From contig CAJTPK010000002.1 in assembly GCA_910578075.1 (NCBI GenBank), forward strand, positions 46,479 to 110,478: 64,000 nucleotides of DNA, written 5' to 3'. A model generated the notes under the pieces. It made no database searches. It was given only the letters and a program-made list of their open reading frames with translations, and was not told where the DNA came from. Positions 15,106 through 35,665 of this stretch are shown piece after piece. Position 1 is the first letter of the stretch. Each line of letters begins with the position of its first letter. The position numbers were made by a program, and so were the translations under genes. This DNA comes from an uncultured Muribaculaceae bacterium (GTDB lineage Bacteria; Bacteroidota; Bacteroidia; Bacteroidales; Muribaculaceae).

Positions 15106-15113
15106 TAATTTTG
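15106..15113 (+). promoter_or_regulatory. Bacteroidetes-type -7 promoter box (TAATTTTG)
   Basis: Matches TAnnTTTG and lies 34 nt upstream of the ATG at 15147. Confidence 0.4.
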
Positions 15114-15146
15114 TTATTATAAATATCGTAAATTATTTAAAGAAAT

Positions 15147-16907
15147 ATGAATATAAAAGATATTAAGAGTCCTGCCGATATCAGGAATCTGTCTGTATCG
15201 GAGTTGAGACTATTATGTCATGATTTGCGTGAAGCGTTGCTTCATAAACTGAGTGTTCATGGTGGTCATATAGGTCCGAATCTTGGAATGGTCGAGGCTG
15301 CGGTGGCATTGCATTATGTATTTGATACACCCAAAGACAAGATCGTGTTTGATGTCTCGCATCAGACATATGTCCATAAAATGTTGACCGGAAGAATAAA
15401 TGCTTTCCTTGACGAAGCCCATTACGATGATGTAACGGGATATACTAATCCCGGTGAGAGCGAGTATGACCTCTTTACCATAGGACACACATCTACGGCT
15501 GTAAGTCTCGCGGGAGGACTTGCCAAGGCAAGAGACTTGCGAGGCGGAAGCGAGAATGTAGTGGCTCTCGTAGGTGACGGTTCGCTCAGTGGCGGTGAGG
15601 CATTCGAAGGACTTGACTTCGGTGCTACACTCGATTCTAATTTCATTGTTGTTGTAAACGATAATGACATGTCGATTGCGGAGAATCATGGTGGTTTGTA
15701 TGAAAGCCTGCGTCAACTGCGTGAGACAGACGGTCAGTCAGAACCCAATTATTTCAAGTCGCTTGGATTTGATTATAAGTATGTGGCATATGGTAATGAT
15801 GTGGATGAGCTTATTAAGGCATTTGAAGGTGTGAAGGATATCAAGCATCCTGTCGTTGTGCATATCAATACGCAGAAGGGTAAAGGATACGCTCCCGCTG
15901 AGGCAGACAGGGAGACATTCCACTATGGAAGCCCCTTTGACATCCCGACCGGGCATCCGACGCATATAGACGAGACACCCGACTATGGAGATGTAACGGC
16001 GCGGCATCTTCTTCAGATGATGCACAAAGATTCAACCGTAGCGGCTATAACGGCAGGTACACCGGGTGTGTTTGGTTTTGATCCCGAAAGACGCAAACAG
16101 GCGGGCAACCAGTTTATAGATGTAGGAATTGCCGAGCAGGAGGCTGTGGCGTTGGCATCAGGTATGGCGAAGGGTGGTGCAAAACCTTTCTTCGGAGTCG
16201 TGAGTTCGTTTGTTCAACGGGCATATGATCAGCTTTCGCAGGATGTTGCAATCAACAATACACCGGTAGTTATAGGATTGTTTTATGCCACTATGTATGG
16301 CATGAACGATGTGACGCATCTCGGATGGTTTGATATAGCTCTTATCAGTAATATTCCGGGATTTGTTTATCTTGCCCCGACTTGCAAGGAGGAGTATCTC
16401 GCCATGCTTGACTGGGCTATGGCTCAGAATGAGCACCCTGTGGCAATCCGCATTCCCGGCACTGCTGTAGTTGAAACCGGCAGGACATTCCCTACAGATT
16501 ATTCTGATCTAAATAAATATAGTATTGACCGCAGGGGTAAGGATATGGCTATAATAGGAGCCGGAGCTTTTTACGGGCTTGGTGAGAAAGTGGTGGCTAT
16601 GCTCGTGGAAAAAGGTTTTGAGCCGACTTTGATAAATCCCCGCTATCTCAGTGGCGTTGATGAGGATTTGCTCAGAGATCTGGAGAAAGATCACAGACTT
16701 GTTGTCACGCTTGAAGATGGGGTGCTCGATGGAGGGTTTGGTGAAAAGATTGCCGGATTCTATGGTTTGACCCCCATGAAGGTGAAATGTTATGGACTGC
16801 GTAAAGAGTTTGCCGACCGTTATGATTATGGTGCACTTGCAGAAGCTAACCGTCTTAACCCATCGCTGATAACAGAAGATATTGAAAGAATTCTTAGTGA
16901 AAAATAA
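15147..16907 (+). CDS. 1-deoxy-D-xylulose-5-phosphate synthase family (transketolase-like) protein, short divergent form
   Basis: 586 aa with GGHIGPNLGMVE, DVSHQTYVHKMLTGR and the ThDP motif LVGDGSLSGGEAFEGL...NDN. Pyrimidine-binding and C-terminal domains are present. Confidence 0.75.
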   Translation: MNIKDIKSPADIRNLSVSELRLLCHDLREALLHKLSVHGGHIGPNLGMVEAAVALHYVFDTPKDKIVFDVSHQTYVHKMLTGRINAFLDEAHYDDVTGYTNPGESEYDLFTIGHTSTAVSLAGGLAKARDLRGGSENVVALVGDGSLSGGEAFEGLDFGATLDSNFIVVVNDNDMSIAENHGGLYESLRQLRETDGQSEPNYFKSLGFDYKYVAYGNDVDELIKAFEGVKDIKHPVVVHINTQKGKGYAPAEADRETFHYGSPFDIPTGHPTHIDETPDYGDVTARHLLQMMHKDSTVAAITAGTPGVFGFDPERRKQAGNQFIDVGIAEQEAVALASGMAKGGAKPFFGVVSSFVQRAYDQLSQDVAINNTPVVIGLFYATMYGMNDVTHLGWFDIALISNIPGFVYLAPTCKEEYLAMLDWAMAQNEHPVAIRIPGTAVVETGRTFPTDYSDLNKYSIDRRGKDMAIIGAGAFYGLGEKVVAMLVEKGFEPTLINPRYLSGVDEDLLRDLEKDHRLVVTLEDGVLDGGFGEKIAGFYGLTPMKVKCYGLRKEFADRYDYGALAEANRLNPSLITEDIERILSEK

Positions 16908-17970: not shown

Positions 17971-18009
17971 AACTAATGAAGTTGTCTATACTTATTTAGG
18001 AAGTTGTTT

Positions 18010-18193
18010 AAACTAATTTACGAAACTTTAAAATGAAGTATGAACAATTTCTTTTATTAACCTTTGCGGATCTTTTTGGTCGCTTTGGTCTCTCTCATCG
18101 GCGCCAACCATTAGGTTGCTGCCTCTTCGAGTGTCAAAATCGACTCAAAAATATCTCGCAAATGTTAATAAAAAATTAGTTTAAACAAACTTC
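18010..18193. repeat. MITE-like palindromic repeat, family A, copy 2
   Basis: Same TIRs and the same internal blocks (ttattaacctttgcggatcttttt ... ggttgctgcctcttcgagtgtcaaaa ... aaaaatatctcgcaaatgttaataa) as 11837-12028. Confidence 0.8.
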
Positions 18194-18465
18194 TGTGTAG
18201 TTATAGCATTTTTTATTATTGGGGCTCCCTTTAAGCACCCATCTTTACTGAATGCGAAGATAGCCATTTTCGATGGATTTTACAATAGCATCTGACATTT
18301 GGGGATTGTTGTCATTTGAGCCATATAAGAATAGGGGATTATTGACAAAGATACTCATATTTATCTCAAAAAACAGAAGTGGAATGCCTCAAAAAAACGA
18401 AACGACCATCCTTGAAAGCTGAGTGTGATTTTGGGGTTACCATTGTGTACATCAGGATTTTTTGA

Positions 18466-21696: not shown

Positions 21697-21938
21697 ATAT
21701 TCATAAATCGGCATCTGTCAGGATATAACGGCGATTTTTATACGTGCAACCCACCCTAATGTCAAATATTCTTATTAACTTTGCGATAGGCTCTTATGAC
21801 AATCCGACAGAAATGCCTCCCGACCGAGCAAAAATAATTGGCATCTCCCGTCATCGCCTCTCCACCGACGGCGATGGTGTCACCACGCTTGTCGCTTTCC
21901 ACGGATGTCCGCTCCGCTGCCGTTACTGCCTCAATCCA
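21697..21938 (+). repeat. Direct repeat copy 1 (promoter plus 5' UTR plus first ~35-40 codons of the radical SAM gene)
   Basis: Near-identical to 29730-29971 (offset 8033 bp). There is one mismatch up to 21917, then partial similarity. Confidence 0.9.
21776..21783 (+). promoter_or_regulatory. Bacteroidetes-type -7 promoter box (TAACTTTG) inside the repeat
   Basis: The context cttattaactttgcg is the same extended context as the boxes upstream of etfB and the B12 riboswitch. It lies 30 nt upstream of the ATG at 21813. Confidence 0.5.
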
Positions 21939-22436
21939 CAATCGCTCGGCGACAGTAACCGTTTCAAGGAATACACTCCGCAGTCACTTTACGATGAAGT
22001 CAGAATTGATGAACTTTATTTCATCGCCACCAACGGTGGTGTGACTTTCGGCGGTGGAGAACCTGCATTACGACCTGATTTTATCCGCCGTTTCCGTGAG
22101 TTGTGTGGCCCGTCATGGAGACTGACATTAGAAACATCGCTGAATGTGCCGCAAGAAAATATTGAGGCTCTACTCCCGGCGGTAGATTCATGGATTATCG
22201 ACATCAAGGATATGGATGCGAACATTTATCGTCAATACACGGATAAGGATAATCCGCATGTGCTGTCCAATTTGCGCTTAATTGCTAAGGCTGACCGTCA
22301 GAAAGACTGCATGATACGGCTACCTCTTATCCCGGACTATAATACCGACACCGCCCGCGAGGTAAGCCGCAAGGCTCTCTCCGCACTTGGCTACTCCAAA
22401 TTCGATCTATTCACCTATCAAATCCGTAAACACTGA
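21813..22436 (+). CDS. Radical SAM enzyme, glycyl-radical-enzyme-activase-like (PflA/NrdG-like)
   Basis: STDGDGVTTLVAFHGCPLRCRYCLNPQS carries the CX3CX2C cluster motif in a PflA-like context. GGGEP follows downstream. The track start at 21744 is a GTG upstream of the promoter box, so I prefer the ATG at 21813. Confidence 0.8.
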   Translation: MPPDRAKIIGISRHRLSTDGDGVTTLVAFHGCPLRCRYCLNPQSLGDSNRFKEYTPQSLYDEVRIDELYFIATNGGVTFGGGEPALRPDFIRRFRELCGPSWRLTLETSLNVPQENIEALLPAVDSWIIDIKDMDANIYRQYTDKDNPHVLSNLRLIAKADRQKDCMIRLPLIPDYNTDTAREVSRKALSALGYSKFDLFTYQIRKH

Positions 22437-22438
22437 TT

Positions 22439-23230
22439 ATGGCACGAGGAAAGCAGACTTGCAAGATATTGAAGGAGATTCGTCGGCAGATAGCCGAAGC
22501 GAATGACATAGAGTTTGTAACGTCGGAGTGTCCCTACAAAGGTGATTGTCTCGGAACGTGTCCGAAATGCGAAGCCGAGGTGCGATATTTAGAGCAACAA
22601 CTTTGTAAGCGACAACTGATGGGTAAAGCCGTTGTGCTTGCCGGATTATCGGCCGGTATGATTGCATTATCAGGCTGCGGCAGTTCCTCAAGTCAGGCCA
22701 ACGACAGTTATAGCCTACAAGGTGAGCCTACGGAGTTGCTTGAGGGTGATGATGAATGGAATGTTGAAGGCGAATTGCCGGTGCAAGAAGTAATAGATTC
22801 AATTAGAGAAGCGGTGATGATGAAAGAGGGAGAGGTAGCCAATATTTCTGATGTTATTGTCACGCAGGGTGAAATGCCGGATGAATTACCTAAAAATCCA
22901 GATGACAGGGATATTTATAACTGTGTTGAACAAATGCCTGAATTTCCGGGAGGTAATGTTGCGATGTTGAATTTTATTGCCAAAAACTTGAAATATCCCA
23001 AAGAACAGTTGGACGCAGGTATTCAAGGAAGAGTTGTCATAAAATTCTATGTTGACACCTTTGGTAATGTTTGTGAGCCAAAGATTGTAAGAGGTAAGGA
23101 CTCTGCATTAGATAGAGAGGCTATCCGTCTTGTCAAATCTTTTCCTCAATTTAGTCCTGGAACACTTAACGGCAGGAAAGTCAATGTATGGTTTACGTTA
23201 CCCATAGTTTTCAAATTACCAGCAGAATAA
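22439..23230 (+). CDS. Membrane protein: five-Cys N-terminal cytoplasmic module, a TM/lipobox-like segment, and a TonB C-terminal domain
   Basis: N-terminus MARGKQTCKILKEIRRQIAEANDIEFVTSECPYKGDCLGTCPKCEAEVRYLEQQL. Hydrophobic AVVLAGLSAGMIALSGC. C-terminus EQMPEFPGG...GIQGRVVIKFYVDTFGNV...RKVNVWFTLPIVF (TonB_C-like). Confidence 0.75.
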   Translation: MARGKQTCKILKEIRRQIAEANDIEFVTSECPYKGDCLGTCPKCEAEVRYLEQQLCKRQLMGKAVVLAGLSAGMIALSGCGSSSSQANDSYSLQGEPTELLEGDDEWNVEGELPVQEVIDSIREAVMMKEGEVANISDVIVTQGEMPDELPKNPDDRDIYNCVEQMPEFPGGNVAMLNFIAKNLKYPKEQLDAGIQGRVVIKFYVDTFGNVCEPKIVRGKDSALDREAIRLVKSFPQFSPGTLNGRKVNVWFTLPIVFKLPAE

Positions 23231-23233
23231 AAT

Positions 23234-24175
23234 ATGGCACGAGGGAAGCAGACCTGCAAGATATTGAAAGAGATTCGTCGGCAGATAGCCGAGGCGAATG
23301 ACATAGAGTTTGTAACGTCGGAGTGTCGTTACAAAGGTGACTGTCTCGGAACCTGTCCGAAATGCGAAGCCGAGGTGCGATATTTGGAGCAACAGCTCCG
23401 CTCCCGTCAACTCATGGGTAAAGCCGTTGTGCTTGCTGGATTATCGGCAGGCGCAATAGCCATGCTTGCTCCTATTGCCGTGCAATCCCAAACTCCCGAC
23501 ACATCTTTGACAAAGGGTTATGTTGCTACTCAGGCAATGGCCGATACTGTCATGGTCAAAGGAGTTGTCCTTGATGGCGATACCTTAAAAGACGGCACTA
23601 TATCAAGAGAGCCTCTGGTAGGTGCTCCAATTATAAATCCACGAACAGGAATTGGTACCTGTTCAAATATTGATGGCAATTTTCAGATAGAGGTTTGCAA
23701 AGGCGACTCTTTGGAAATATCGTATATAGGGTATAATAAACAAAGAGTAATGGTTTTGGATGATACCCCTTTAGAAATAATATTAAATAGTGACGGATTG
23801 CGACTTACCGGAGATGTAGTAGTAATTGGTGCCATATCCGCCCCCGTTGACCGGGAGAATATGCTTGATTTGCATATTCTTGATGAAAATAAAAAGCCAA
23901 TCCCATATGAAGTTGTCACGATAGAACGTGTATATCTTGATGAAGATGGTGAGGAAGATTCTGACTTTCTTGACCCGGTATGGATTGAGGAAAAGGAAGT
24001 ATTCCGTTTTTATTGGAATGAGGATTCTGATTTTCAAGATGAAGATGGCAAGCCACTGAAAGAAGCAATATTGCGTATAGAGGTTGACGGTTACGACAAT
24101 CCCAAAACAATAAAAGTCAAATATCCCAAACGCAACACAAAGAAAACCATCAAGTTCAAACACAAAAGTGAATAA
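23234..24175 (+). CDS. Paralogous membrane protein: same five-Cys N-terminal module, a TM segment, and a CarboxypepD_reg-like domain
   Basis: The first ~215 nt are about 90% identical to 22439-22655. Downstream is VKGVVLDGDT...NIDGNFQIEVCKGDSLEISYIGYNKQRV. Confidence 0.7.
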   Translation: MARGKQTCKILKEIRRQIAEANDIEFVTSECRYKGDCLGTCPKCEAEVRYLEQQLRSRQLMGKAVVLAGLSAGAIAMLAPIAVQSQTPDTSLTKGYVATQAMADTVMVKGVVLDGDTLKDGTISREPLVGAPIINPRTGIGTCSNIDGNFQIEVCKGDSLEISYIGYNKQRVMVLDDTPLEIILNSDGLRLTGDVVVIGAISAPVDRENMLDLHILDENKKPIPYEVVTIERVYLDEDGEEDSDFLDPVWIEEKEVFRFYWNEDSDFQDEDGKPLKEAILRIEVDGYDNPKTIKVKYPKRNTKKTIKFKHKSE

Positions 24176-24180
24176 AAACC

Positions 24181-25353
24181 ATGAAGCTAAATAAATACAT
24201 ATCTTTTTATGCAACTCTGTTGATGTGTTTGATTTTAAATCTATCATCCTGCACAGTTGGCTATAAAAACGATGGCAAGGAAGTGACATGGCATACTTGG
24301 AATGAAGGGAGTGGGCATAACTCACGCAAAGTTGCCGCAGATCCCAACTCGTTTGAGGCTCTTGACGATGATTATGGACGCGATGCAGTACATGCTTTTT
24401 ATGAAGGAGATATCATTGAGGGTGCCGATGGAAGTTCATTCAAAACATTAGGAAATTGGTATGCATCCGATGATAAGCATGTCTATATTTCGGGGAATTT
24501 GATTAACGGAGCTGATGCCACCTCATTCAAAGTCCATCGCTACCGTTTAGGAGAAGACAAGAATGATTTTTACAATGATACCACCGCTCTCAATGTCAGG
24601 GACAAGGTTACTTTTGAAATCCTGAAATATTCATCGGGTAAAGAATCCAGTTATGCAAAGGATAAGTATAACGGATATTACATGAATGGCACTGTTATAC
24701 CGGATATTGATTATCATACATTTCATCCAGTCGATGTAGAATCATGGCAAGACCGTTGCTATGCCGCTGATAAAAATAAGGTCTACTATTATGGAGAAGT
24801 TGTGCCAATGGCTGACCCGGCGACATTCAAGGTCGTAGATTTTGCAATAGGTCAAGACAAGAACCGGGCCTATAAAGGCAAGGAGCCTACTCAAATAAAG
24901 GACTATACTAAATTAGAGAAGGTTGGGCCTGTTATGTACAATGACGGAACCAATATATATGACCTTAATTTCAAAATACTTCCGGATGTTGATGTCGCAA
25001 CATTCGAGCATATTGAGGATAATTGGTATAAAGACAAAAATAAGGTTTGGTGGATGTCTAAGCCTCTGCCGGGAGCAAATCCTCAAACCTTTATGCCTGT
25101 TGAAGTCTCATCATATAAATCTATATCTGGCAAAAAAGACCCATTCAGTGGAGGAGATTTCAACTTTGGAAAGGATGACAAATATGTTTTTTATCAAGAT
25201 TCAATTATTGTCGGAGCTGACCCTATGAGCTTTGAAAAGATTGATTTTCATGACGGAGATAGCTGGACCGTGTTTGACAAAAACAAAGTATATCAAGGGA
25301 AAGATTCTCCAAACAGGAGAAAGTATCTCAAAAAGAAATATGGTAAGCTATGA
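24181..25353 (+). CDS. DKNYY-repeat family protein (secreted or lipoprotein)
   Basis: Signal/lipobox-like LNLSSC. Repeated D(D/K)K(N/H)(K)VYY-type motifs (DDKHVYISG, DKNKVYYYGE, DKNKVWWMSK, DDKYVFYQD, DKNKVYQGK). Confidence 0.65.
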   Translation: MKLNKYISFYATLLMCLILNLSSCTVGYKNDGKEVTWHTWNEGSGHNSRKVAADPNSFEALDDDYGRDAVHAFYEGDIIEGADGSSFKTLGNWYASDDKHVYISGNLINGADATSFKVHRYRLGEDKNDFYNDTTALNVRDKVTFEILKYSSGKESSYAKDKYNGYYMNGTVIPDIDYHTFHPVDVESWQDRCYAADKNKVYYYGEVVPMADPATFKVVDFAIGQDKNRAYKGKEPTQIKDYTKLEKVGPVMYNDGTNIYDLNFKILPDVDVATFEHIEDNWYKDKNKVWWMSKPLPGANPQTFMPVEVSSYKSISGKKDPFSGGDFNFGKDDKYVFYQDSIIVGADPMSFEKIDFHDGDSWTVFDKNKVYQGKDSPNRRKYLKKKYGKL

Positions 25354-26150
25354 AAACCGTAAATGACAATGGTTTTAATCAGTCCATGAACAAGAAATCG
25401 GCTTTTCTGCGGTTCATGCGATATGTAGCTGTGGCATTAGTCTCAGTGACATTATTGTGTGTATTTATACTTAGTATTGGATTGGACGGATTCGATTTGG
25501 ATTTAGCTCTGTTTGCCTTTATTCTAATCTTTTCCAGCCTGTCTTTCATAACATTACCTATTATTGGATTTTGGATATATTCATTTGTCAAAGCCTTTAG
25601 ACGTCGAACAAAAACGGATAAGATTCTTCTGGGGTTCCACATTGTGGATCTGCTCCTGCTGGGAATAATTATATATCTTGCAAACCAACCACATCAGAAA
25701 TGTGATGCTGATATAATGGCTGAATATTATGAAGGTGAAAATGGGTTTTGGATGAGGAATATTGCTACCCGTTATCACAATATTCTCCCTGACAGCACTC
25801 GATTATGTTATGAGATTGATTATGAAAAATCTTACCCCTATGTTTTAAGCGAAGAGGATACAAAGAGGTTGAAAAGAGAGTTGAAAGATTGCGGTTGCAT
25901 AGGTATAGATATTGACAACTACTCCAGCAAAGGGTATTCAACTATCCGATTCCGGCGGATTGGAATGGGGATGTATTCTTACCGCTTCTACGATAAGCCC
26001 TTAACACTCCATGAGCAAGACAGCATCAATAATAACGAGTGCTTTATAGTCTATAATGATTCAACTGTGTTTGAATTTGGTGGTGGTGTCTTTGGAGTAC
26101 AGCACTTTGTCGGAAAAGAAGAATTTAGGGAAAAGTTACACAACTCATAA
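25350..26150 (+). CDS. Hypothetical membrane protein (3 TM plus soluble C-terminal domain)
   Basis: ATGA overlap with the upstream gene. Hydrophobic segments in residues ~25-110. Confidence 0.6.
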   Translation: MKTVNDNGFNQSMNKKSAFLRFMRYVAVALVSVTLLCVFILSIGLDGFDLDLALFAFILIFSSLSFITLPIIGFWIYSFVKAFRRRTKTDKILLGFHIVDLLLLGIIIYLANQPHQKCDADIMAEYYEGENGFWMRNIATRYHNILPDSTRLCYEIDYEKSYPYVLSEEDTKRLKRELKDCGCIGIDIDNYSSKGYSTIRFRRIGMGMYSYRFYDKPLTLHEQDSINNNECFIVYNDSTVFEFGGGVFGVQHFVGKEEFREKLHNS

Positions 26151-26162
26151 ATGGATTAGACA

Positions 26163-26339
26163 ATGGATAACATTGGCAAGCAACTGGCATCTGTGATAAT
26201 CGTATTCTGTGGTATGTTTACGACGATATTTTGCTTTGACTCTCCAAATATGATTACAAATCTGATATTGGTCTGCTCAATCATTTTAATATGCGGCGGC
26301 TTACTTTGGCTGCTTTGGCGGAAAGTAGGTAAGCGATGA
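26163..26339 (+). CDS. Unlisted 58-aa two-TM small protein
   Basis: MDNIGKQLASVIIVFCGMFTTIFCFDSPNMITNLILVCSIILICGGLLWLLWRKVGKR. The stop overlaps the next ATG (ATGA). It falls below the ORF-track length cutoff. Confidence 0.5.
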   Translation: MDNIGKQLASVIIVFCGMFTTIFCFDSPNMITNLILVCSIILICGGLLWLLWRKVGKR

Positions 26340-26635
26340 AACAGCTATACAAAATCAAATGGCTTATAATTGTCTTATCTGGAATAATGTGGGTTGTTTC
26401 ATTCGCAATATTATTTGCCGGAGGGACGGCTATACAAAACAGGATTGCGTTGGCTATAAATCTTGTCATGATTGTATTTCAGATAATGAATTGCTATCGG
26501 GCATTTGTTGTCAATCAGAAAGATGCCGCTATTGCACTTATCGTTTGCCTTCTAATCATACTTATGTTGATGTGGGCGACATATATCTGGGGTTGGAATT
26601 ATACAGTTAAGGCATTAACTATCGGATTTGAATAG
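26336..26635 (+). CDS. Hypothetical small membrane protein (99 aa, ~3 TM)
   Basis: Coupled start. Almost entirely hydrophobic helices. Confidence 0.6.
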   Translation: MKQLYKIKWLIIVLSGIMWVVSFAILFAGGTAIQNRIALAINLVMIVFQIMNCYRAFVVNQKDAAIALIVCLLIILMLMWATYIWGWNYTVKALTIGFE

Positions 26636-26636
26636 C

Positions 26637-26966
26637 ATGAAGGATAAGACGATAAACAATATTATACAAGCATGGTGGAATATTCAAATATTGGTATTCA
26701 TAACCCTGTTTATTCTTGCACCATATCGACCATTCCCGTTGTGGTGTATGATTTGCGCGTGTAGTCTTTTAGTAGTCTGTGCAAATTTAAGATTTCACCG
26801 CAGTTTATATGGCACTTTATCAAAGATTGTCCTTGTGTTATACACTATATCCTATGTTATTGTTGCCTTTATGTTTATCGGTGTTGCATCGCCTAAAATA
26901 TTGCTCGCCATTGTGATTGCTGTTGTAGGGCTAATAAATGTCTTGTGCTGTCTTAAATGGAACTGA
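26637..26966 (+). CDS. Hypothetical small membrane protein (~109 aa, 3 TM)
   Basis: The track start at 26628 is TTG. The ATG at 26637 lies 1 nt after the upstream stop. Confidence 0.6.
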   Translation: MKDKTINNIIQAWWNIQILVFITLFILAPYRPFPLWCMICACSLLVVCANLRFHRSLYGTLSKIVLVLYTISYVIVAFMFIGVASPKILLAIVIAVVGLINVLCCLKWN

Positions 26967-26973
26967 ATATGCT

Positions 26974-27522
26974 ATGGATAAGGTACACTTGATTATAAAA
27001 TGGCTATTTTATCTACTTGCCGCATTAGTGGTTATTGATTTATGGTGTATTGCCATATCAATAGTTTTTACTCTTGTCGGTATGAATGAAAAGTGCTTCC
27101 TGTTAGTCAAGATATTTTCAGCCATTCTCCCTGCTCTGATAATTTGGTCATACGCAGCTTTGTATATTATCATGTATCGAAGAACGGAATATGAAGATAT
27201 TATCTCGGTTGTATGGTCAAAAAGAATTAGGCTTATAATATGGTTGACATTTGGGTATTACAACACCTATCTTCTATCTCTATATTTCGTGAGATTCAGA
27301 TACTCACAGTATGAATTGTTGCAATATCGTGTAAATGTGATATATTCCGTCTTGTCAATGATCCCTATTCTGAATTTAATAGTATATTGGAGAGCAATTC
27401 ATGAATCTGAGATTCGATTATCGTTTATACAAGCTATAACCTTGTATTTTAAGGGAGAACTCATGTCGTATTTGATTAAGGAGAATTACTCACATCTTCT
27501 ACATCGTATAGAAAGCCAATAA
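26974..27522 (+). CDS. Hypothetical membrane protein (~182 aa, 5 TM)
   Basis: I prefer the start MDKVHLIIKWLFYLLAALVVIDLW because the duplicated fragment at 34006 begins at the equivalent ATG. Confidence 0.6.
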   Translation: MDKVHLIIKWLFYLLAALVVIDLWCIAISIVFTLVGMNEKCFLLVKIFSAILPALIIWSYAALYIIMYRRTEYEDIISVVWSKRIRLIIWLTFGYYNTYLLSLYFVRFRYSQYELLQYRVNVIYSVLSMIPILNLIVYWRAIHESEIRLSFIQAITLYFKGELMSYLIKENYSHLLHRIESQ

Positions 27523-27524
27523 AT

Positions 27525-28430
27525 ATGAAGTCTGACAGCAAATTATACCGATTCTTTCTTGGCGAGCGAGGAACAAGAGGTTTGCCAACTGTGGCTATCC
27601 TTATAGTTCTTGTACCGTTTTTGGTTTTCGGATTCTTTTTCAATAATAATAAACGGGAGAATTTGGCGAATAATCCGGTTTCTACAAGAGTGATAATCGA
27701 AGACATTTCAAGTGTTGGCAATTCATGGTCGATCTCCTACCATCTGAATATTGATGGGATTAGTTATAAAGGTAGTGGAAGACGATTAAAAGGGTTGGCC
27801 GTTGGTGATACTATTGGAGTCATGTATCAAAAGAATAATCCAGCCAATAATATGACCGTCTATGATTACTATGACCATAGTGACGATAAATGGCTTATTA
27901 TCATAATTCTTTTGGCTGCCGTTTTAGGCATATATCGTTGGTCAAAAGTAGGAAAAACCAATAACACGATTGAAATACCACAAGATAGAAATGCCAAATG
28001 TCAAATATACCGGACTTCAAAGCACTACATCTTCCTGACGGTTTATTATAGTATTGCAAGCAAACCAATCTATTTTCTATCACACGATTGTACTGATTCA
28101 GAATTTGAGAAAACTATGTTTGACTGTCTTGAAACAAGTGTTAAGAGCAGATATGAAGATATGAAAGCGTCTGAATTGATAAAAGCGATGAAGCAACAGT
28201 CTTGGCGGCAACTGTATCTGAACTCAACCATGTGCCTTGTAGAATATAGCAGTAAAGAATATCTTGGAGATAAATTGTCAATAGAAGTTGGCAAGAGGCG
28301 TAAAGATGGACGAGGTTTTGATTGGGACAGTAGTCGTTCCCGGTCATTCGATATGAAAGAGACCGACTGGCGACAAACAATAGGAATTATCCGAAACATT
28401 TTAGACCCGACAATCAATGAAACTGACTGA
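27525..28430 (+). CDS. Hypothetical membrane protein, DUF3592-like N-terminal module plus soluble C-terminal domain
   Basis: TM, then a beta-rich segment (VSTRVIIEDISSVGNSWSISYHLNIDGISYKGSG...IGVMYQKNNP), then TM, then ~150 aa soluble. Confidence 0.55.
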   Translation: MKSDSKLYRFFLGERGTRGLPTVAILIVLVPFLVFGFFFNNNKRENLANNPVSTRVIIEDISSVGNSWSISYHLNIDGISYKGSGRRLKGLAVGDTIGVMYQKNNPANNMTVYDYYDHSDDKWLIIIILLAAVLGIYRWSKVGKTNNTIEIPQDRNAKCQIYRTSKHYIFLTVYYSIASKPIYFLSHDCTDSEFEKTMFDCLETSVKSRYEDMKASELIKAMKQQSWRQLYLNSTMCLVEYSSKEYLGDKLSIEVGKRRKDGRGFDWDSSRSRSFDMKETDWRQTIGIIRNILDPTINETD

Positions 28431-28929
28431 TAAACGATTTTGGTACGGTACAAAAACGACCTATTATACCTCTTTTATATTTGCATTAAAAGATGCCCTC
28501 CTGTTCTCAATATCATGGGTGTTGGCAATTTGTATAATGTTATTTTCAATCTGCCTATTTATTCAAATGAATAATGGAGATACAATATCCGGTCAGGTCA
28601 TTACATTCGGATTACTCTTCATTCTCATTGTATTTGTTGTTTCAAACGGTATGTTTCTATATGATAATTGGCTTAAGCAATGTTACGTTATGCGAAAGAC
28701 AAAGAGACTTCTACCAGATAGTTGTGTTATTTTGGATACAAAGTATGACAATGTAAACAAGCAATACAAGATAATGCTGGATTATTCAGGAAAGCAGTTT
28801 GTGGTAACAGTAAATTTCCCTTTCTTTTATATATGTGAAAAAGGAACGCGTGCTCTTGGAGCATTGAATATTAATTCAAGAAAGTATTTTGCAAAGAATA
28901 AGTCGGCAATCGTGAATTATATGTCTTAA
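28417..28929 (+). CDS. Hypothetical membrane protein (170 aa)
   Basis: 14-nt overlap with the upstream gene. 3 TM plus a C-terminal beta-rich segment. Confidence 0.55.
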   Translation: MKLTDKRFWYGTKTTYYTSFIFALKDALLFSISWVLAICIMLFSICLFIQMNNGDTISGQVITFGLLFILIVFVVSNGMFLYDNWLKQCYVMRKTKRLLPDSCVILDTKYDNVNKQYKIMLDYSGKQFVVTVNFPFFYICEKGTRALGALNINSRKYFAKNKSAIVNYMS

Positions 28930-29267
28930 TGAAATGTTATATGGCACACTACAATACCCAATTTTGGTTATTATGGTTAATAGGGGCGGTTATGACTTTG
29001 TCAGTCTGCTTATGCTCATCATGGAGTGAAGATACATTGCTCCTTGCTGCGGCGTTTGCCCTGTCGCTGATTTCCATAGCCATTATCCATAAGTTCAGAA
29101 ACCATACTGCATTATGCAATATTCTATTTTGGTTGGGATATAATGCGTTGCTGTGTTACGGGCTGTTGTTCAAAAGCGAGGGTGGCGCAGGACTTACATG
29201 GTGGTTCTATCTGTTATGCCCTAATGTCTTACAGTTTATTTCCGATGCAATTATAGCGTATATCTAA
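28929..29267 (+). CDS. Hypothetical small membrane protein (112 aa, 4 TM)
   Basis: TAATG overlap with the upstream gene. Confidence 0.55.
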   Translation: MKCYMAHYNTQFWLLWLIGAVMTLSVCLCSSWSEDTLLLAAAFALSLISIAIIHKFRNHTALCNILFWLGYNALLCYGLLFKSEGGAGLTWWFYLLCPNVLQFISDAIIAYI

Positions 29268-29729
29268 TAATGAGTAGGTTGCGCTTTATGTATACAAAAC
29301 GGTTAACAGTGCTGTCTGCATCTTCAAATTTAACGGTTTCGGCTCTCTCAAGCGCCCATCTTTACTGAGTGCAAAGTTTGTAATTTTTGACTTAACCTCC
29401 AAACAAAATAGTTAAGATTTGGGGATTCGGTGCAGAAATACCTATATCAATTAGGGGATTTGGTGCAGATTTATTAAATCAAATTTGGGGATTCGGAGTA
29501 TTATGGGTAACGTTCTGTGAAAAATTCTCTTCACGAGTGAACCAACGTTACCTTATATATACAAAGGATTTACGCAAAGATGGCAATATAACTTACCTCC
29601 CGGCATACATGACACAATTTCTATAAATTACCTGCATTTTCTGCATTATCCGCATTTTGGGACAAAAGTCTATCTGTGAAATGTCAGTAAGAAAAAATGG
29701 CTCTGTTGATAGCGGATTATTGGGGTGTG

Positions 29730-29971
29730 ATATTCATAAATCGGCATCTGTCAGGATATAACGGCGATTTTTATACGTGCAACCCACCCTAATGTCAAAT
29801 ATTCTTATTAACTTTGCGATAGGCTCTTATGACAATCCGACAGAAATGCCTCCCGACCGAGCAAAAATAATTGGCATCTCCCGTCATCGCCTCTCCACCG
29901 ACGGCGATGGTGTGACCACGCTTGTCGCTTTCCACGGATGTCCGCTCCGCGACCTTTACTGCCTGAATCCG
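29730..29971 (+). repeat. Direct repeat copy 2 (promoter plus radical SAM 5' end)
   Basis: See 21697-21938. The TAACTTTG box is at 29809-29816. Confidence 0.9.
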
Positions 29972-30007
29972 AACTATTATTTTCAGGGAAGGAGGGTTGC
30001 AAGATGA
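29846..30007 (+). pseudogene. Truncated radical SAM gene remnant (cluster motif destroyed), possibly co-opted as a leader ORF
   Basis: Identical through ...VAFHGCPLR, then DLYCLNPNYYFQGRRVAR*. CPLRCRYC has become CPLRDLYC. The stop overlaps the next ATG (ATGA at 30004-30007). Confidence 0.8.
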
Positions 30008-31360
30008 AACCGATATGGTACATAATTGGTCTTGCCTGTTTTCTAATCTCTGCAATAGCAAGAATGGCAAACTCTATCTCAGATGTGTTAGTTGCAGTTG
30101 GCATTATCGCAGCGATTGGTGTGCTGATTTGGCTATATGAACAAGGTTATATAAAAATCAATTATCGAGTCAAGGAGATAGTTAAAGCCATTTTCAAGTG
30201 GGTTATCATTATCGCAGCCATTTTATATATTGTCTGTTTGATATGTTTTGTCGGATATAAAGCTATAGGAGGAGACGACTATGTTGGCTTGATCGTCATA
30301 GCCTTGGCGGGAGGAATATTTGGCGTGTCGTATTACTTGACACGTTGGCGCAGGTGGTGGATTAAATTCCTGAGAACATTTCTTCGGAAAGATCAGATGA
30401 GCGCCCTTGACTTGAAGTTTGGAGCTGACAGTTATGAAGAATATGATTGCAATAGCGGTGTCAGATACTGCCTCCGTCCGAAAGAAGGCGTATTTATAGG
30501 AACCACTCGCATATTCATATCACCTGATACTCTCGATGATTCCATGAATGAACGGTTAAGGAGATTTGACAATATGCTTCGGGAAAGTGGCATCGAGAAC
30601 ACACTCAACGTAGATTACACCGATGGTTGTATTTATGCGGACGTGTCGGTAACAGTAGATTGCCGACGAATGAATGTTGAAAAACAGACACTCTTACGCA
30701 ATGCGTTTATCTACCTTAAAGACAGTAATTATCAAGGCGATTACTTTGGGAAATATGTTGGAGAATACGGAACAATATTATTTCAATCAACAGCAGTCGA
30801 AATTATCCGTGCTGTAAGGGTAAAACCGCGTGAGGAATATTATATTTATCCCGACAGTGGTTTTCAATCGGAAGATGCGTATCTATTTATCGGAAGATGC
30901 GTATCTATTTATTGAATACTATCCGGACTGGACTAACGGTGAATACACACTCATAGCTGAAAAAGAGTTTTTCAGTCGATGGCGTAAGCGTACAGAATTT
31001 GATAATAAAGATCAAGCATATACCGATTTTGATGTATCTTCAACCGCCTATTTTGCTGCGATTGAAAATGGAGATAAAAAGGAGCAAAAATACAGTCGGG
31101 AAGACATAGAGAAGGCGGCTTTATGGTTAATCCGATACGATGAAGTTGATTATATTAAAGAATTGCTGTCAAATCCACATGATGAAACAGAATATTGGGC
31201 TGCCCGCTTTTTCCACGATGTCATTCCTGAACTTGCTGAAGCTATGGCTCAAACCCTTGTGGATAACTGCGACAAGCCGGTAATAGCAGCAAACGCCAAA
31301 CGACTGTTGGCTCAGTGGAGAAAAAATAAACAAGAAAAAGATAGCACTACGATAAGATGA
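30004..31360 (+). pseudogene. Membrane protein gene (4 TM plus large soluble domain) split by a 22-bp tandem duplication
   Basis: SEDAYLFI is encoded twice in two frames. Removing one copy of cggaagatgcgtatctatttat fuses 30004-30915 with 30830-31360 into a 444-aa ORF. The downstream track ORF starts with GTG. Confidence 0.7.
30869..30912 (+). repeat. Perfect 22-bp tandem duplication (2 copies)
   Basis: cggaagatgcgtatctatttat at 30869-30890 and again at 30891-30912. Confidence 0.95.
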
Positions 31361-32277
31361 AAGAATCTCTCCGTTATAAAGTATGCCTATGGATAGTGTG
31401 GGTGCAACTCGCACTCATACCTACTGTATATCTTATGATGTGGGTGGTCGATGGTACACCTTATATCTGGCGATGGAATCTTTTGTCTTGGGCTATCTTT
31501 ACAGGCTATCTGATTGGCTTCATCGCTTTGCCATTAAGTCGTGGTCTTGACAAACCTAAACTCTTAAAATGGTGGTTGCGGATTGATTTTGTAGCCTCAA
31601 TACTACTTTTTATACCTTTCTATTTCACGTTCATGGCGTCAAAGGCTAATTTTGTATCTGAAAGAGGTAAGTATATTCTATTTACAACAGGTGGAGGAAT
31701 GGCAAAGCCGACACTTAGGTTAGGAAAATCATATGGGTTATTTATCAAAGAATTATATAATTCAGATGCTGTGGCATTTGATATAAATGCTGAAGATTGG
31801 TTTGTTAATGAAGATTATGGTTATAGCAGCCTAAAAACTACTTACGATACTTATAAAAGTATCCATGTGTTTCCGATTGACAGTTCAGCTTATCACCAAC
31901 ATAATAATGTTATTGACACACAGATTGATAGCATATTTCATGCAAACATAATCGGTTATGACAAAATGGAATTTGTTATGCCGAAAGATTTTTCAACAAT
32001 CGAATACCGAGACAGCTCCAGTATTGAATATCACAGATCCGACTATATTCAGTTAGCAGAAATAGAGTATCGTTCATTCGGAAAAGGAAATCTTTTGGAT
32101 TCAGTATTGATAACCCTTTCTGTATCAAAAAATGACATATTATCGATAACTGACTCAGATACATTATTGGTGGAGAGAGTTGAAACGGAGAGACAAATAA
32201 AGATCCCGAAAGAATCTGTGCCGTGGATGTCTCCGACTGAAGTACATCGGTTCTTGAACGATTTGAAAAGGAGGTAA
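31357..32277 (+). CDS. Hypothetical membrane protein (306 aa; 4 TM plus soluble domain)
   Basis: ATGA overlap with the upstream ORF. Confidence 0.6.
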   Translation: MKESLRYKVCLWIVWVQLALIPTVYLMMWVVDGTPYIWRWNLLSWAIFTGYLIGFIALPLSRGLDKPKLLKWWLRIDFVASILLFIPFYFTFMASKANFVSERGKYILFTTGGGMAKPTLRLGKSYGLFIKELYNSDAVAFDINAEDWFVNEDYGYSSLKTTYDTYKSIHVFPIDSSAYHQHNNVIDTQIDSIFHANIIGYDKMEFVMPKDFSTIEYRDSSSIEYHRSDYIQLAEIEYRSFGKGNLLDSVLITLSVSKNDILSITDSDTLLVERVETERQIKIPKESVPWMSPTEVHRFLNDLKRR

Positions 32278-32280
32278 GCG

Positions 32281-32727
32281 ATGAAAACTGACGGATATAT
32301 TTTCAAAGATAGTTGGCTGGAATATATTTTATATGGCATATTATTGTGCCCTTTTATATGTCTATGGGTCAGTCTTGACACATTCCCATTTGGAGACAAA
32401 GGAGCTGTCGGATTATTTATTTTCATAATGGCTTTCATTATGATTTTGACCTTCTCTATATGGGGCATTGTTAAACATCCGAATCGACTGATAATTGGCA
32501 ACGATGGAATACATTATTATTGCCGTAGAGTTACATTGTCAAACAATTCATCGTTTTGGATTGATAATTATAAGCTTTATTCATGGGAGAAAATTCAAGG
32601 GTTCTATTTCGAATGGATGATGGCGCGTGGTGTTATGTCACATCGTTATCTTGTTCTTGAACATGAACATGATAAGGCAGCTTTTATACGATTAAACGAC
32701 TTAACCGGAAAAAATATGAGTATATAA
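32281..32727 (+). CDS. Hypothetical membrane protein (2 TM plus bPH-like domain), probably frameshifted at an A6 tract
   Basis: 148 aa as written. A +1 A at 32709-32714 would extend it to 32888, adding a C-terminal TM. Confidence 0.55.
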   Translation: MKTDGYIFKDSWLEYILYGILLCPFICLWVSLDTFPFGDKGAVGLFIFIMAFIMILTFSIWGIVKHPNRLIIGNDGIHYYCRRVTLSNNSSFWIDNYKLYSWEKIQGFYFEWMMARGVMSHRYLVLEHEHDKAAFIRLNDLTGKNMSI

Positions 32728-32887
32728 GTGCTATTGAGGAATGTAGCGATGGAAAATGTTTGTTAAACAGGGCAAAATATAACGAGAACAGAAAGATACG
32801 AAATAGATCATTGTGGAAATACTACATATTTCCGTTATTGATAGGAATAGCCCTTGCAATGTTACTGAATAAATTCGGAGTCAGATA

Positions 32888-33439
32888 ATGGAAAGCATAT
32901 TCCGGTATATTGTAATAATAGCCATAGCCTTTATGATAGGCAAGGAGGTGTTTCGGTCAATCAGGCAAAAGTCTGTTGACCGGTGTATTCTTGCGATAAT
33001 CGTGCTGTTTGGAATTGTGATTTTCATGAGCCGTAGTTTTTTAGTTTCTATTAGGAGTTATGGTTATCTCGAAATATGTATAACTGTCCTCGTTATCTTG
33101 GCATATCTTTTAGAGAGGTCAACGAAAATCTACAAACTGATTAGAGGTATGTCGATAGCAAGTCTTTTAGTGGCCATATCAGTCTTTACGTATTGGAATA
33201 TAAAGGCTCAGAAGATAACTGGTGAAATTGACATCGTAGAGTTGAATGGATTTACAATGGGGAGATTTGAGGAAGTTTTGTTCAAGTATGATGGTGAGCC
33301 ATTTAGTCGTCATTGCAGTTTGAAAGACTATTCAAGCAACGATGATTTGATGGATCGCTATAATGTGAAGTTAACGCTCAAACCACTTTACCCTCACATT
33401 GTCAAGTTAGAGTCTATTACCCTAATCCCTAAAGAATGA
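32888..33439 (+). CDS. Hypothetical membrane protein (183 aa; 4 TM plus soluble domain)
   Basis: ATG start; ATGA overlap with the next gene. Confidence 0.6.
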   Translation: MESIFRYIVIIAIAFMIGKEVFRSIRQKSVDRCILAIIVLFGIVIFMSRSFLVSIRSYGYLEICITVLVILAYLLERSTKIYKLIRGMSIASLLVAISVFTYWNIKAQKITGEIDIVELNGFTMGRFEEVLFKYDGEPFSRHCSLKDYSSNDDLMDRYNVKLTLKPLYPHIVKLESITLIPKE

Positions 33440-33996
33440 TTACGCATAATAACCAATATATAGCAAAAGAATCGCTGACGTTTCCACTGTTGGTAACGGT
33501 GATGTTTGGCGTGTCTTTATATGCTTCTATCTATGCACCTAAATTTTGGTGCATATTTGGTGCGGTCTTTTTCGGTTTGGGTGTGGCTGTATATGCCTAT
33601 AAATATATCCGCTATGGTAGAACCACGCTAATAATTTACAGCGAGGGAATAACAATAAAGGACTGGGGCAAGACCAAAACATATAATTGGTGGTGGGATA
33701 TAGTGAGCGTCTATACCAATTGGAACGTATCTTATTTTGCTCGTTTCGTGGAAAGATGGCTAAGAATCAAAACTTCAGTAAATGGTGAACAGTTTGAGTT
33801 CCACGATATTTGCCTATCCGATCTGTATTGCCGAAGCAAAAGTGTTCGTAAGGCGATTGAAAAATATGCAGGGCCGTCTCGTTTCGATTATGAGGCTTCA
33901 CAAGAAACAAAAAGTTATGTGTCTAAGATAGTGCTGCTGGCATCGATAGTCGCTGTTATTGGAATATTCATTTGCTTAACCTATTTTTCAGAGTGA
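33436..33996 (+). CDS. Hypothetical membrane protein (2 TM plus bPH-like domain plus C-terminal TM)
   Basis: 186 aa. Its architecture parallels the repaired 32281 gene. Confidence 0.6.
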   Translation: MITHNNQYIAKESLTFPLLVTVMFGVSLYASIYAPKFWCIFGAVFFGLGVAVYAYKYIRYGRTTLIIYSEGITIKDWGKTKTYNWWWDIVSVYTNWNVSYFARFVERWLRIKTSVNGEQFEFHDICLSDLYCRSKSVRKAIEKYAGPSRFDYEASQETKSYVSKIVLLASIVAVIGIFICLTYFSE

Positions 33997-34005
33997 TTCA
34001 ATGCT

Positions 34006-34104
34006 ATGGGTAAGGTACACTTAATTATAAAATGGCTATTTTATCTACTTGCCGCATTAGTGGCTATTGACTTATGGTGTATTGCCGATGCAGAAATTGT
34101 ATAA
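34006..34104 (+). pseudogene. Duplicated 5' fragment of the 26974 gene (32 codons)
   Basis: MGKVHLIIKWLFYLLAALVAIDLWCIADAEIV* compares with MDKVHLIIKWLFYLLAALVVIDLWCIAISIVF... There is ~90-nt nucleotide similarity between 34001-34089 and 26969-27057. Confidence 0.75.
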
Positions 34105-34134
34105 AGATTGATTTTAAGATAAGTTTAGACAATT

Positions 34135-34593
34135 TCAATTCTTTAAAATCTTCTTTTTTAGATATATCATGTCATTTAATGTCACGCCTTCTTCAATTAT
34201 CGGGTGATCATAATTGTTGGTGAAAAATCCCGGTATTGTGTGGGAGAAAACATAACCGCAGTTCTTGTAAAAGCGCAATGTCGATGGGGTTTCACCGGTG
34301 CCGAGTTGCAAAGTTTTGCCCTGGTATATAGACTCAACATGATCGAGCATTCTTCTTCCGATGCCCTGCCGTCTGTATTCAGAAATGACAGCGAGATTTT
34401 TTATCTCAATCGTAGTGTAGTCTTCTTCAGTTATGGCACAGCAGGAAACCGGTGTTTCGTTTATAAATCCAATGAAAAGTCGTCCATAGTCAAGATACCG
34501 GTCAATCATATCCTCTTGCTCATCACCGATAAGCAAAAGATTCATATATTTATATTTGGAAACCAATATTTCCCTGATTTCGAAATCTGTCAT
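34135..34593 (-). CDS. GNAT-family N-acetyltransferase
   Basis: Acetyl-CoA motif YRRQGIGRRML. I prefer the start MTDFEIREIL over the upstream ATG at 34620. Confidence 0.8.
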   Translation of the reverse strand: MTDFEIREILVSKYKYMNLLLIGDEQEDMIDRYLDYGRLFIGFINETPVSCCAITEEDYTTIEIKNLAVISEYRRQGIGRRMLDHVESIYQGKTLQLGTGETPSTLRFYKNCGYVFSHTIPGFFTNNYDHPIIEEGVTLNDMIYLKKKILKN

Positions 34594-34699
34594 GATAAAA
34601 CAAATAAAAGTCCGTTTCATGAAAAATTTAGCTTTAGTGTACGGACTCTAAGAGAATAACTTTGCTTTTTACTTTTTATTTGATGCTAAAGGGTGTAGA

Positions 34700-35309
34700 C
34701 TCAGCGTCTCTGCGTGATTAAAATTTTAACGCAGAGGAGCGGAGGAGGGGAGTTTCAGCCTTGATGTTTTAGCGACGCTGGAATCGCGTGGCGATTCTTG
34801 CCGAGGCGCGGAGACGTCGCTAAAATTTGTCGCGGTTTTTATAGACCAAAGATCCATAGGAACCAAAGCATTGCCGAGTATGCTTTCGTCTCAGACTATT
34901 CGCAACGGCTCTGCGCCTTCGCAGGAGTGGTAACGACCTCCGCGCCGAATTGAGCGGCATAAAACCTTTGCGGCTCAGCGTCTCTGCGTGATTAAATTTT
35001 TAACGCAGAGGAGCGGAGGAGGAGAGTTTTAGCCTCGACGTTTTAGCGACGCTGGAATCGCGTGGCGATTCTTGCCGAGGCGCGGAGACGTCGCTAAAAT
35101 TTGTCGCGGTTTTTATAGACCAAAGATCCATAGGAACCAAAGCATTGCCGAGTATGCTTTCGTCTCGGACTATTCGCAACGGCTCTGCGCCTTCGCAGGA
35201 GTGGTAACGACCTCCGCGCCGGATTGAGCGGCATAAAACTTTGCGACTCAGCGTCTCTGCGTGATTAAAATTTTAACGCAGAGGAGCGGAGGAGGGGAGT
35301 TTCAGCCTT
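34700..35309 (+). repeat. Tandem repeat, ~274-bp unit x ~2.2 (family B repeat, expanded form)
   Basis: Units start at 34700, 34974 and 35247 with ctcagcgtctctgcgtgattaaaatttta-acgcagagg. Internal hairpins ttttagcgacg...cgtcgctaaaa and gaatcgcgtggcgattc. Confidence 0.9.
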
Positions 35310-35422: not shown

Positions 35423-35430
35423 TAACTTTG
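35423..35430 (+). promoter_or_regulatory. Bacteroidetes-type -7 promoter box (TAACTTTG) for the B12 operon
   Basis: The context tttgtaactttgcc sits immediately upstream of the riboswitch. Confidence 0.5.
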
Positions 35431-35436
35431 CCGATG

Positions 35437-35600
35437 AAAGCGGTTGGCCGTTGGCCATTAAAAGGGAACCGGGTGTGAATCCCGGACAGTCCCGCTGCGG
35501 TAAGTCTCTGTAAGACTTCGGCAAACATCTCTTTAAGCCACTGACAATGGTCGGGAAGGCATGCCGGATGTCGAGACAAGTCCGAAGACCTGCCGTTTTC
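35437..35600 (+). promoter_or_regulatory. Cobalamin (B12) riboswitch
   Basis: Conserved core AAAAGGGAACCGGGTGTGAATCCCGGACAGTCCCGC, plus GCCACTG...GGGAAGGC and the B12 box AAGTCCGAAGACCTGCC. It lies upstream of btuB. Confidence 0.85.
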
Positions 35601-35665
35601 GGGGAAGTAGTTCCAAAGGTGCTCTTTCCGGTATGTTGAACACTCTTTCGAGGAAAAGAGAACAT

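Follow-up and report, generated by a model that had tools for sequence, protein, structure and literature searches.

A truncated copy of a radical SAM gene head in front of a second gene array in Muribaculaceae

Dispersed repeats such as the copies of tuf or of rRNA operons undergo concerted evolution by gene conversion. In integrons, a platform made of Pc and attI supplies one promoter that reads into promoterless cassettes, the order of which varies between strains, and the orphan modules of Rhs and CdiA keep the 3' end of a conserved core without its promoter and start. Here we describe a locus of an uncultured Muribaculaceae bacterium (assembly GCA_910578075.1, contig CAJTPK010000002.1, positions 46,479 to 110,478; this whole stretch of 64,000 nucleotides, numbered from its first letter, is called the window) that shares features with each of them. 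A direct repeat, which we call the head, contains the promoter region and the first codons of a radical SAM gene and occurs twice on the forward strand, once at the start of an operon with the intact gene (module A) and once, as a truncated stub, in front of a second series of genes (array B). We think it probable that copy 2 is what remains of the head of a second such operon, maintained by gene conversion and serving array B. We hold it similarly likely that the locus is a hypervariable co-directional array and one of a family of operons, led by radical SAM genes, in the Muribaculaceae. Another described system close to this locus is rAID-1, the recombinase-associated acquired interbacterial defence arrays of the Bacteroidales (bioRxiv 10.1101/471110).

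Like rAID-1, the locus consists of long co-directional arrays of low G+C content, made of small and fast-changing genes on a Bacteroidales chromosome; the gene at the 5' end is conserved, a short sequence recurs between some of the cassettes, and the content differs between close strains. rAID-1 arrays have at least two co-directional downstream genes with a G+C content of 41% or less, and here there are 17 co-directional open reading frames (ORFs), with 33-40% across 24000-34500. However, the 5' gene of rAID-1 codes for a XerD-like tyrosine recombinase, whereas here it is the radical SAM gene; the recurring motif is here a start element resembling a Shine-Dalgarno (SD) sequence and in rAID-1 an integron-like repeat; and duplicated truncated 5' heads, present here, are not described for rAID-1. 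Homologues of immunity genes, of the type VI secretion system or other, are a further mark of rAID-1, and here the array proteins tested gave no Pfam match above the gathering score and no PADLOC match.

As in an integron, one upstream promoter would read into a co-directional cassette series of strain-variable order; unlike in an integron, no integrase and no attC-type imperfect inverted repeats were found, and there are several heads per genome. The only inverted repeats found between 15000 and 45000 lie at 17986-18206, outside the arrays. An invertible-promoter switch of the Bacteroides type was rejected, as there are no inverted repeats around either head and no recombinase was found. Truncated conserved segments beside variable cargo are also seen in the orphans of Rhs and contact-dependent inhibition (CDI) loci, where, as here, the remaining homology permits recombination with the main gene at a later time; unlike those orphans, the stub keeps the promoter and the 5' end, and the cargo would stay expressible. 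No toxin or immunity domains were detected in the array proteins tested, unlike in Rhs/CDI. As for tuf and rRNA operons, copies within a genome are closer to each other than to their interspecies orthologues and form mosaic tracts; the difference is that one partner here is a non-functional 5' stub, of which only the promoter-proximal 184 nucleotides (nt) are homogenised. We found nothing relevant in the literature on this type of radical SAM operon. Operon decay, promoter retention and gene conversion are known processes, here met in an uncharacterised and widespread Muribaculaceae locus type.

Two heads in the window and truncated heads elsewhere

The repeat, found by pairwise alignment and by a repeat finder, is 241 nt long (21697-21937 and 29730-29970, start to start 8033). 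Its two copies have five mismatches (97.9% identity), all within the final 57 nt (in copy 1 at 21881, 21918-19, 21922 and 21932), and the first 184 nt (21697-21880) show no difference; chance origin is no concern for 241 nt at 98% identity. A preliminary description of this DNA had noted a near-identical direct repeat of ~240 bp with the same offset, and this is confirmed, but its end had been placed one base too far, the homology stopping after ...AATCC, and the radical SAM codons inside the repeat number about 42 rather than the ~35 first counted. Each copy consists of an upstream region, the -7 box TAACTTTG (21776-21783 and 29809-29816), which we take to match the Bacteroidia -7 consensus TAnnTTTG, a short 5' untranslated region (UTR) and the in-frame ATG of the radical SAM gene, 29 nt past the box (21813 in copy 1, 29846 in copy 2), in accordance with the earlier assignment of these elements. 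The codons of copy 1 belong to the intact gene, with the cluster motif CPLRCRYC, which in copy 2 has become CPLRDLYC. The copy-2 ORF (29846-30007) has 53 sense codons and a stop, and its TGA overlaps the ATG of B1, the first gene of array B, at 30004 (ATGA); both the motif change and the 54-codon ORF with its overlap had been read correctly before. The tail of this stub of 53 amino acids (aa), at 29971-30007, is unrelated to the radical SAM gene and holds a degenerate form, GGGAAGGAGGGTTGCAAGATGA (29986-30007), of the linker motif discussed below.

Independent public assemblies of the species, more than 13 in number, show the two-copy arrangement again, and the species has a third head. At this third site a two-component response-regulator (RR) gene is followed by a head, a 52-aa stub, an ATGA overlap and a gene for a 129-aa protein with multiple transmembrane (TM) segments. 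At this locus (8688-9366 in L117; L numbers denote retrieved loci and contigs) the radical SAM stub is degenerate and the head carries about nine private substitutions; the arrangement is present in L117 (plus 10 similar places), L118 and L121-L124, the majority of the contigs carrying the regulator, and sample ERZ28662903 contains a window-type scaffold and the third-head locus together. The RR-side head is a mosaic, with private bases in the promoter and UTR followed by ~130 bases that are the same as in the other heads.

Truncated heads are also present in sister species. L002, L003, L004 and L010, with radical SAM proteins of 91-92% aa identity, have a second, truncated head less than 10 kb from the intact gene, and none was seen in the more distant loci examined. 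The points at which radical SAM sequence ends are partly shared: window copy 2 and L010_c0 have junction type I (...AATCC, then ATTATTTTCAGGRAAGGAGGGTTG) and L003_c0 and L004_c2 type II, with type III in L002_c2 and type IV in the close strain L098. A scan of metagenomes with a 30-nt head pattern returned 22 heads, eight of them intact and 14 truncated with at least five junction types; of these 14, six are of type II, three are similar to type IV, four have the stub running into the GGAAAGGAGG linker, and one is different. This distribution marks the head as a recurrent unit and not a strain-private duplication.

All seven truncated heads examined in detail keep TAnnTTTG, the radical SAM ATG and an open frame. 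Three have ORFs of 52-53 aa that overlap the next gene by ATGA, behind GGAAAGGAGG; two are in-frame fusions of 225 and 184 aa, in which 19 or 29 radical SAM residues are joined to proteins with signal or lipoprotein-like N-termini; and in the remaining two, 9 or 34 nt separate the stop from the next ORF. In L003_c0, identity to the genome's own intact head is only 86%, and TAAATTTG and the ATG are present all the same; such retention points to some selection, not copying alone. The stub peptides diverge freely past about residue 30 and the cluster motif is gone in two of them, and consequently the stubs would be leaders at most, not enzymes.

Some features of the sister loci are separate from the heads themselves. 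In L002 (8014-9765 / 13941-15692) and L004 (1026-2777 / 6917-8668) a gene for a 583-aa TPR protein precedes each head, and the duplicated unit, which includes this gene, is larger than that of the window. The stub-headed array of L010 contains a DDE transposase gene of an insertion sequence (5990-7213).

Homogenisation of the heads and origin of copy 2

Identity between heads was compared over a 107-nt core region. There, copies 1 and 2 of the window are 100% identical and heads c1 and c2 of L004 99.1%, whereas window copy 2 and L010_c0, which have the same junction, are 89.9% identical; heads within a genome are thus closer than same-junction heads of other species, as expected in concerted evolution. 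Both L010 heads share a private CCTT insertion found nowhere else. At ~10% divergence about 18 differences would be expected over 184 nt, and none is observed between copies 1 and 2. Because copy 2 shares its junction with L010 yet is identical to its own copy 1, we consider gene conversion, with the intact copy of the same genome replacing the 5' 184 nt of copy 2, the best explanation. In the 3' 57 nt, two of the five copy-2 differences match variants in the heads of other species, and all five copy-specific differences vary within the species; in contig L082 a type I stub carries the intact CPLRCRYC motif, a combination that a k-mer assembler could not make from window-type copies, since the last diagnostic base is 5 nt from the junction.

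The junction shared with L010 also means that the truncation is old and predates the split of the lineages or was exchanged between them. It therefore speaks against reading copy 2 as a recent duplication that re-primed a second module; the preliminary description had proposed that a promoter and leader cassette was duplicated or recombined to drive such a module, and what holds of that proposal is that a radical SAM promoter and leader would head an unrelated array and that this pattern recurs widely. Homologues of B1-B6 lie 3' of intact radical SAM genes in other species, co-oriented and never on the opposite strand, and for this reason we regard copy 2 and array B as most likely the remnant of a second radical SAM operon after internal deletion. 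In L042 the order is radical SAM gene, two N-domain genes (the membrane-protein genes described below), a 58-aa ORF resembling A5b, a linker, homologues of B1 and B2, and a B6-like gene. From such an order, copy 2 and its ATGA coupling to B1 would result if a deletion began at about radical SAM codon 44 and ended at the last codons of the small ORF; that deletion would have removed the rest of the radical SAM gene, the N-domain genes and most of the small upstream ORF, and fused the stub to the tail of that ORF. In L003, L010 and contig L103, the adjacency of A11 (of module A), spacer and head runs into a full radical SAM gene.

Linker, proposed role of the stub and rival readings

A 20-nt linker with the consensus GGAAAGGAGG(C/T)AAGC(G/C)ATGA occurs at the A5b/A6 junction (GGAAAGTAGGTAAGCGATGA, 26320-26339) and at the B3/B4 junction (GAAAAGGAGGTAAGCGATGA, 32265-32284), both on the forward strand, with the looser form before B1; two matches are observed in the window where 0.01 would be expected, and the motif is present at 3 of its ~17 junctions. 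In a scan of 80 related loci (L001-L080) plus the window, there were 26 matches with at most two mismatches and 34 with at most three mismatches and a terminal ATG; all are on the strand of the radical SAM gene, and all but two weak ones lie 3' of it at ORF starts. The pooled loci gave 39 unique instances, every one with ATGA and with unrelated flanks on both sides; the upstream ORF ends at the TGA of the ATGA in 28 and, in a different frame, at a TAA inside the motif in 8. The linker looks like an extended SD-like sequence acting as a translational coupling device. Such an element is unexpected in Bacteroidia because their ribosomes sequester the anti-SD (PMC7797042, PMC9976891, PMC13000453), and, if it works as an SD, it would be a rare natural case in this class outside rpsU and prfB. 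Its 'spacer' CAAGCG roughly matches the SD core in conservation, which may leave room for a role in recombination. It is rather doubtful that the radical SAM loci form a dedicated cassette system without a nearby recombinase gene, in which a portable head of promoter and radical SAM start, together with GGAAAGGAGGCAAGCGATGA as extended SD, would allow small membrane-protein genes to be swapped in and expressed; if they did, translation of the cassettes would depend on a special ribosome state, for example ribosomes lacking bS21 (PMC9976891), and the array would be a translationally gated gene pool shuffled by recombination.

In the reading we prefer, the stub would provide transcription of array B from a promoter of the radical SAM type and translation of B1 by termination-reinitiation coupling, and array B would be co-regulated with the intact operon. 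All 11 aligned heads have TAACTTTG, TATCTTTG or TAAATTTG; the promoter scan covered the sigma-70 consensus only. Two other functions for the head were rejected: a structured RNA, both leader folds being no better than shuffles (z = -0.3, -0.6), and a nucleotide-level element in the first radical SAM codons, third-position entropy in 43 species being no lower in codons 1-40 than over the remaining codons. The only Rfam match is a cobalamin riboswitch (35424-35611), outside the head.

Close strains differ in the genes that follow the heads, and the cassettes are shuffled between them. L098 has a DMP19-family gene after the radical SAM gene, lacks DKNYY and A5-A8, and differs in its stub junction and in the genes that precede B3; in L100, T1 (an N-domain gene) is followed by a 164-aa ORF and A9; and in L111 part of T2 (the second such gene) and A5b-A7 are gone. 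Contigs that cross a head mostly read SDR gene-head-radical SAM gene or A11-spacer-head-B1. A minority show other joins: L089 has the SDR gene, one head and B1, an exact deletion of module A; in L109 the RR-side head is joined to module A, and in L082 and L086 to array B; in L103 the A11-spacer is joined to a full radical SAM gene, which is only 95.8% identical to that of the window and so comes from another strain. The three heads per genome and the repeat formed by A8 and its fragment A8' are substrates for homologous recombination, by which module A could be lost or a head become attached to a different array. The alternative joins are leads rather than proof, and some may reflect real rearrangements. 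Separately, three independent assemblies (L086, L087 and L089) end at about 32197, the 3' end of B3, where mosaic boundaries of sister species also lie; these breaks suggest strain-level variation at the B3/B4 linker.

Several points weigh against a conversion-maintained head of a second operon that serves array B. Conversion could preserve the stub promoter without selection on the stub, and the promoter activity of the stub and its coupling to B1 are what we infer from sequence. The deletion model leans on one distant species, L042, for its gene order, and the stub tail resembles the canonical linker weakly. The intact operon comes first in the window and in L002/L004 and second in L003/L010, and a single path to all gene orders had to be given up, since single crossovers at the heads or at A8 fit no simple series. 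The joins in L089, L082, L086, L109 and L103 cross 130-184 identical bases, more than typical assembly k-mers, and in most contigs the RR-side head has the 129-aa gene as its native partner; the rarer joins may thus be chimeras created during assembly. Finally, transcripts of module A could run on into array B, because no terminator-like site was found in the spacer between them.

This last point is the core of a neutral alternative, in which copy 2 would be debris of a decayed operon with no role of its own and array B would be transcribed from module A; the destroyed cluster motif (CPLRDLYC), the stub tails that vary freely between heads and the ability of conversion alone to preserve the promoter part all agree with it. 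We nevertheless regard it as unlikely: the third head lies behind an unrelated convergent RR gene, and the 129-aa gene has no other plausible promoter, the truncated heads of L010 and L003 follow unrelated DNA and keep the -7 box and ATG, L003_c0 even without homogenisation, and 14 truncated heads among 22 are many for pure debris. A mis-join in the source assembly as the origin of copy 2 is practically inconceivable, even though repeats of this length do make chimeric joins in metagenome assemblies, because the independent assemblies agree in the order A11-spacer-head-B1 and in the five copy-specific differences, and sister species have equivalent structures.

Two further explanations make the locus an active system, and both seem improbable to us. 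In one, GGAAAGGAGGCAAGCGATGA would be a recombination site of programmed, integron-like cassettes, with the radical SAM head as the promoter/attI end. Against the absence of any recombinase or integrase gene within ~10 kb on each side or in the other window ORFs tested, the presence of the motif at so few window junctions, and the stub junction types II, III and IV that lack it, this idea can set a specific and autonomous motif with unrelated flanks, where the upstream ORF ends in two frames, and the stubs of type I, type V and H3, which all join a radical SAM fragment to GGAAAGGAGGCAAGCGATGA with different genes after it; the motif itself is mostly explained as an extended SD with a coupled start. 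In the other, recombination between heads would often delete or amplify the 8-kb module A and produce distinct subpopulations, an idea that goes back to the preliminary description. The 184 identical bases in direct repeats 8 kb apart, the exact deletion in L089 and the order A11, spacer, head, full radical SAM gene in L103 are what such switching would leave; L089, however, is one of ~25 contigs spanning the SDR-head junction and comes from a mixed-strain sample, with a pattern of single-nucleotide polymorphisms in its head that is absent from both window copies, L103 represents another strain with the gene order of L003/L010 rather than a circle junction, and deletion would take away the only intact radical SAM and N-domain genes. 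What stands of that earlier suggestion is this one, possibly chimeric, deletion contig; no amplification junction was seen.

Genes of the arrays, their surroundings and significance

Module A (21813-29267) begins with the intact radical SAM gene (21813-22436), whose 207-aa product is PflA-like, resembling glycyl-radical activases. It matches Pfam PF04055 (6e-18) and also PF13353, has PflA as its best match in the PDB (2e-15), and scores 134 bits against NCBIfam TIGR02494, under the cut-off of 174. It has the N-terminal CxxxCxxC [4Fe-4S] motif and the radical SAM core of the PflA/PflC family, and no glycyl radical enzyme partner was found in the operon. The best matches are 92% identical proteins in metagenome-assembled genomes of Duncaniella/Muribaculaceae, and contigs identical to the window come from mouse-gut metagenomes. 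Gene callers begin the gene at an upstream codon, giving a 225-aa product, and for this reason an exact-protein look-up of the product from the ATG at 21813 was empty.

The next two genes, T1 (22439-23230) and T2 (23234-24175), together span 22439-24175 and code for proteins with different C-terminal domains, TonB_C and CarbopepD_reg respectively, that share a conserved Cys-rich N-terminal domain (N-domain) of ~60 aa and a TM segment; in the DNA this appears as a 219-nt direct repeat (22438-22656 / 23233-23451). The N-domain has the signature MARGKQTCKILKEIRRQIAEANDIEF.TSEC.YKGDCLGTCPKCEAEVRYLEQQL, with the TM segment next, and is mostly 80-98% conserved at the aa level (tblastn), the C-terminal domains varying. 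Genes for N-domain membrane proteins lie directly 3' of the radical SAM gene in most of the 79 radical SAM loci tabulated, and most Muribaculaceae loci retrieved have one to five copies; the operon plan is a PflA-like radical SAM gene, one to five N-domain membrane proteins and changeable genes for small membrane proteins. The N-domain gave no Pfam match and no PDB sequence match; its AlphaFold model (pLDDT 71) has a helix, a Cys loop and a long helix, for which Foldseek gave no match at E <= 0.001 (best E = 1.8). A search for homologues returned mostly fragments at contig ends, named 'energy transducer TonB' or unnamed. The Cys-rich N-domain is a candidate substrate or partner of the radical SAM enzyme.

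The rest of module A (24181-29267) comprises the gene for a DKNYY protein (24181-25353) and A5-A11, eight small ORFs, tightly packed or overlapping and mostly multi-TM. A second direct repeat, of 86 nt and 95% identity, has its first copy at the 5' end of A8 (26969-27054). Array B (30004-33996) has six co-directional ORFs, B1-B6, five of them predicted to be multi-TM, with no predicted TM segment in B2. No families were found for A5-A11 and B1-B6 in Pfam, NCBIfam or PADLOC, and the literature gave no link of DKNYY, DUF4304 or DMP19 to immunity. Directly after B6 and in the same polarity, A8' (34001-34086) repeats the 86 nt of the A8 5' end and is cut after 28 codons; it is 95% identical to A8 of the window and 98% to that of L003, and is a deletion scar at the far end of array B.

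Module A and head copy 2 are separated by a non-coding spacer of 462 nt (29268-29729), in which no ORF and no terminator-like hairpin were found. A stretch of it (29350-29470) has ~80% identity with sequence upstream of the AlbA_2/HTH gene (18233-18330, or more narrowly 18233-18273), and the spacer also holds two copies of GGGGATT(C/T)GGTGCAGA; in L006 the radical SAM gene directly follows an AlbA_2-like gene. Across 24000-34500 the G+C content is 33-40%, and it is 45-51% in the flanks, which consist of ordinary chromosomal genes: upstream DXP synthase, GH43, the AlbA_2/HTH protein, a cNMP-binding regulator and the SDR gene, downstream GNAT and then a cluster for cobalamin uptake and salvage. 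No recombinase, integrase or transposase is present in the Pfam tables of the window-identical contigs L081/L091 (~10 kb upstream, ~7 kb downstream), and no recombinase among 10 further window ORFs tested; a mobile element was rejected as an explanation, as tRNA genes and matching inverted repeats are absent and neither an integrase nor a transposase gene was found in the vicinity.

Other repeats were noted in the flanks. Between the GNAT gene and the cobalamin riboswitch, a 274-bp unit containing the hairpin CTCTGCGT...ACGCAGAG is repeated in tandem (34698-35308; 2.2 copies, 96% identity), and a related piece of 100 nt lies upstream of the FecCD permease gene (40174-40273). Upstream of the DXP synthase gene there is a large imperfect palindrome of ~308 bp (14634-14941), with arms of 105 nt that are 85% complementary and an inner pair of 30-nt arms. 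Among the retrieved loci, contigs often end a few hundred bases at most past the radical SAM gene or inside the N-domain repeat (L001, L008, L016, L019, L035, L037, L052); the same pattern is seen in many of the proteins P0121-P0240, such loci systematically fragmenting short-read assemblies.

The Muribaculaceae are a dominant and poorly studied group in the mouse gut. Most of the loci retrieved from them have this locus type, which differs between near-identical strains and therefore probably marks a strain-level trait under fast turnover. Three near-identical heads in one genome break or mis-join metagenome assemblies, and calls of gene content at such loci need long reads. Furthermore, variable genes may stay expressed after rearrangement by inheriting the promoter, the start and the first codons of the lead gene, while gene conversion would keep the inherited head in step with the intact copy.

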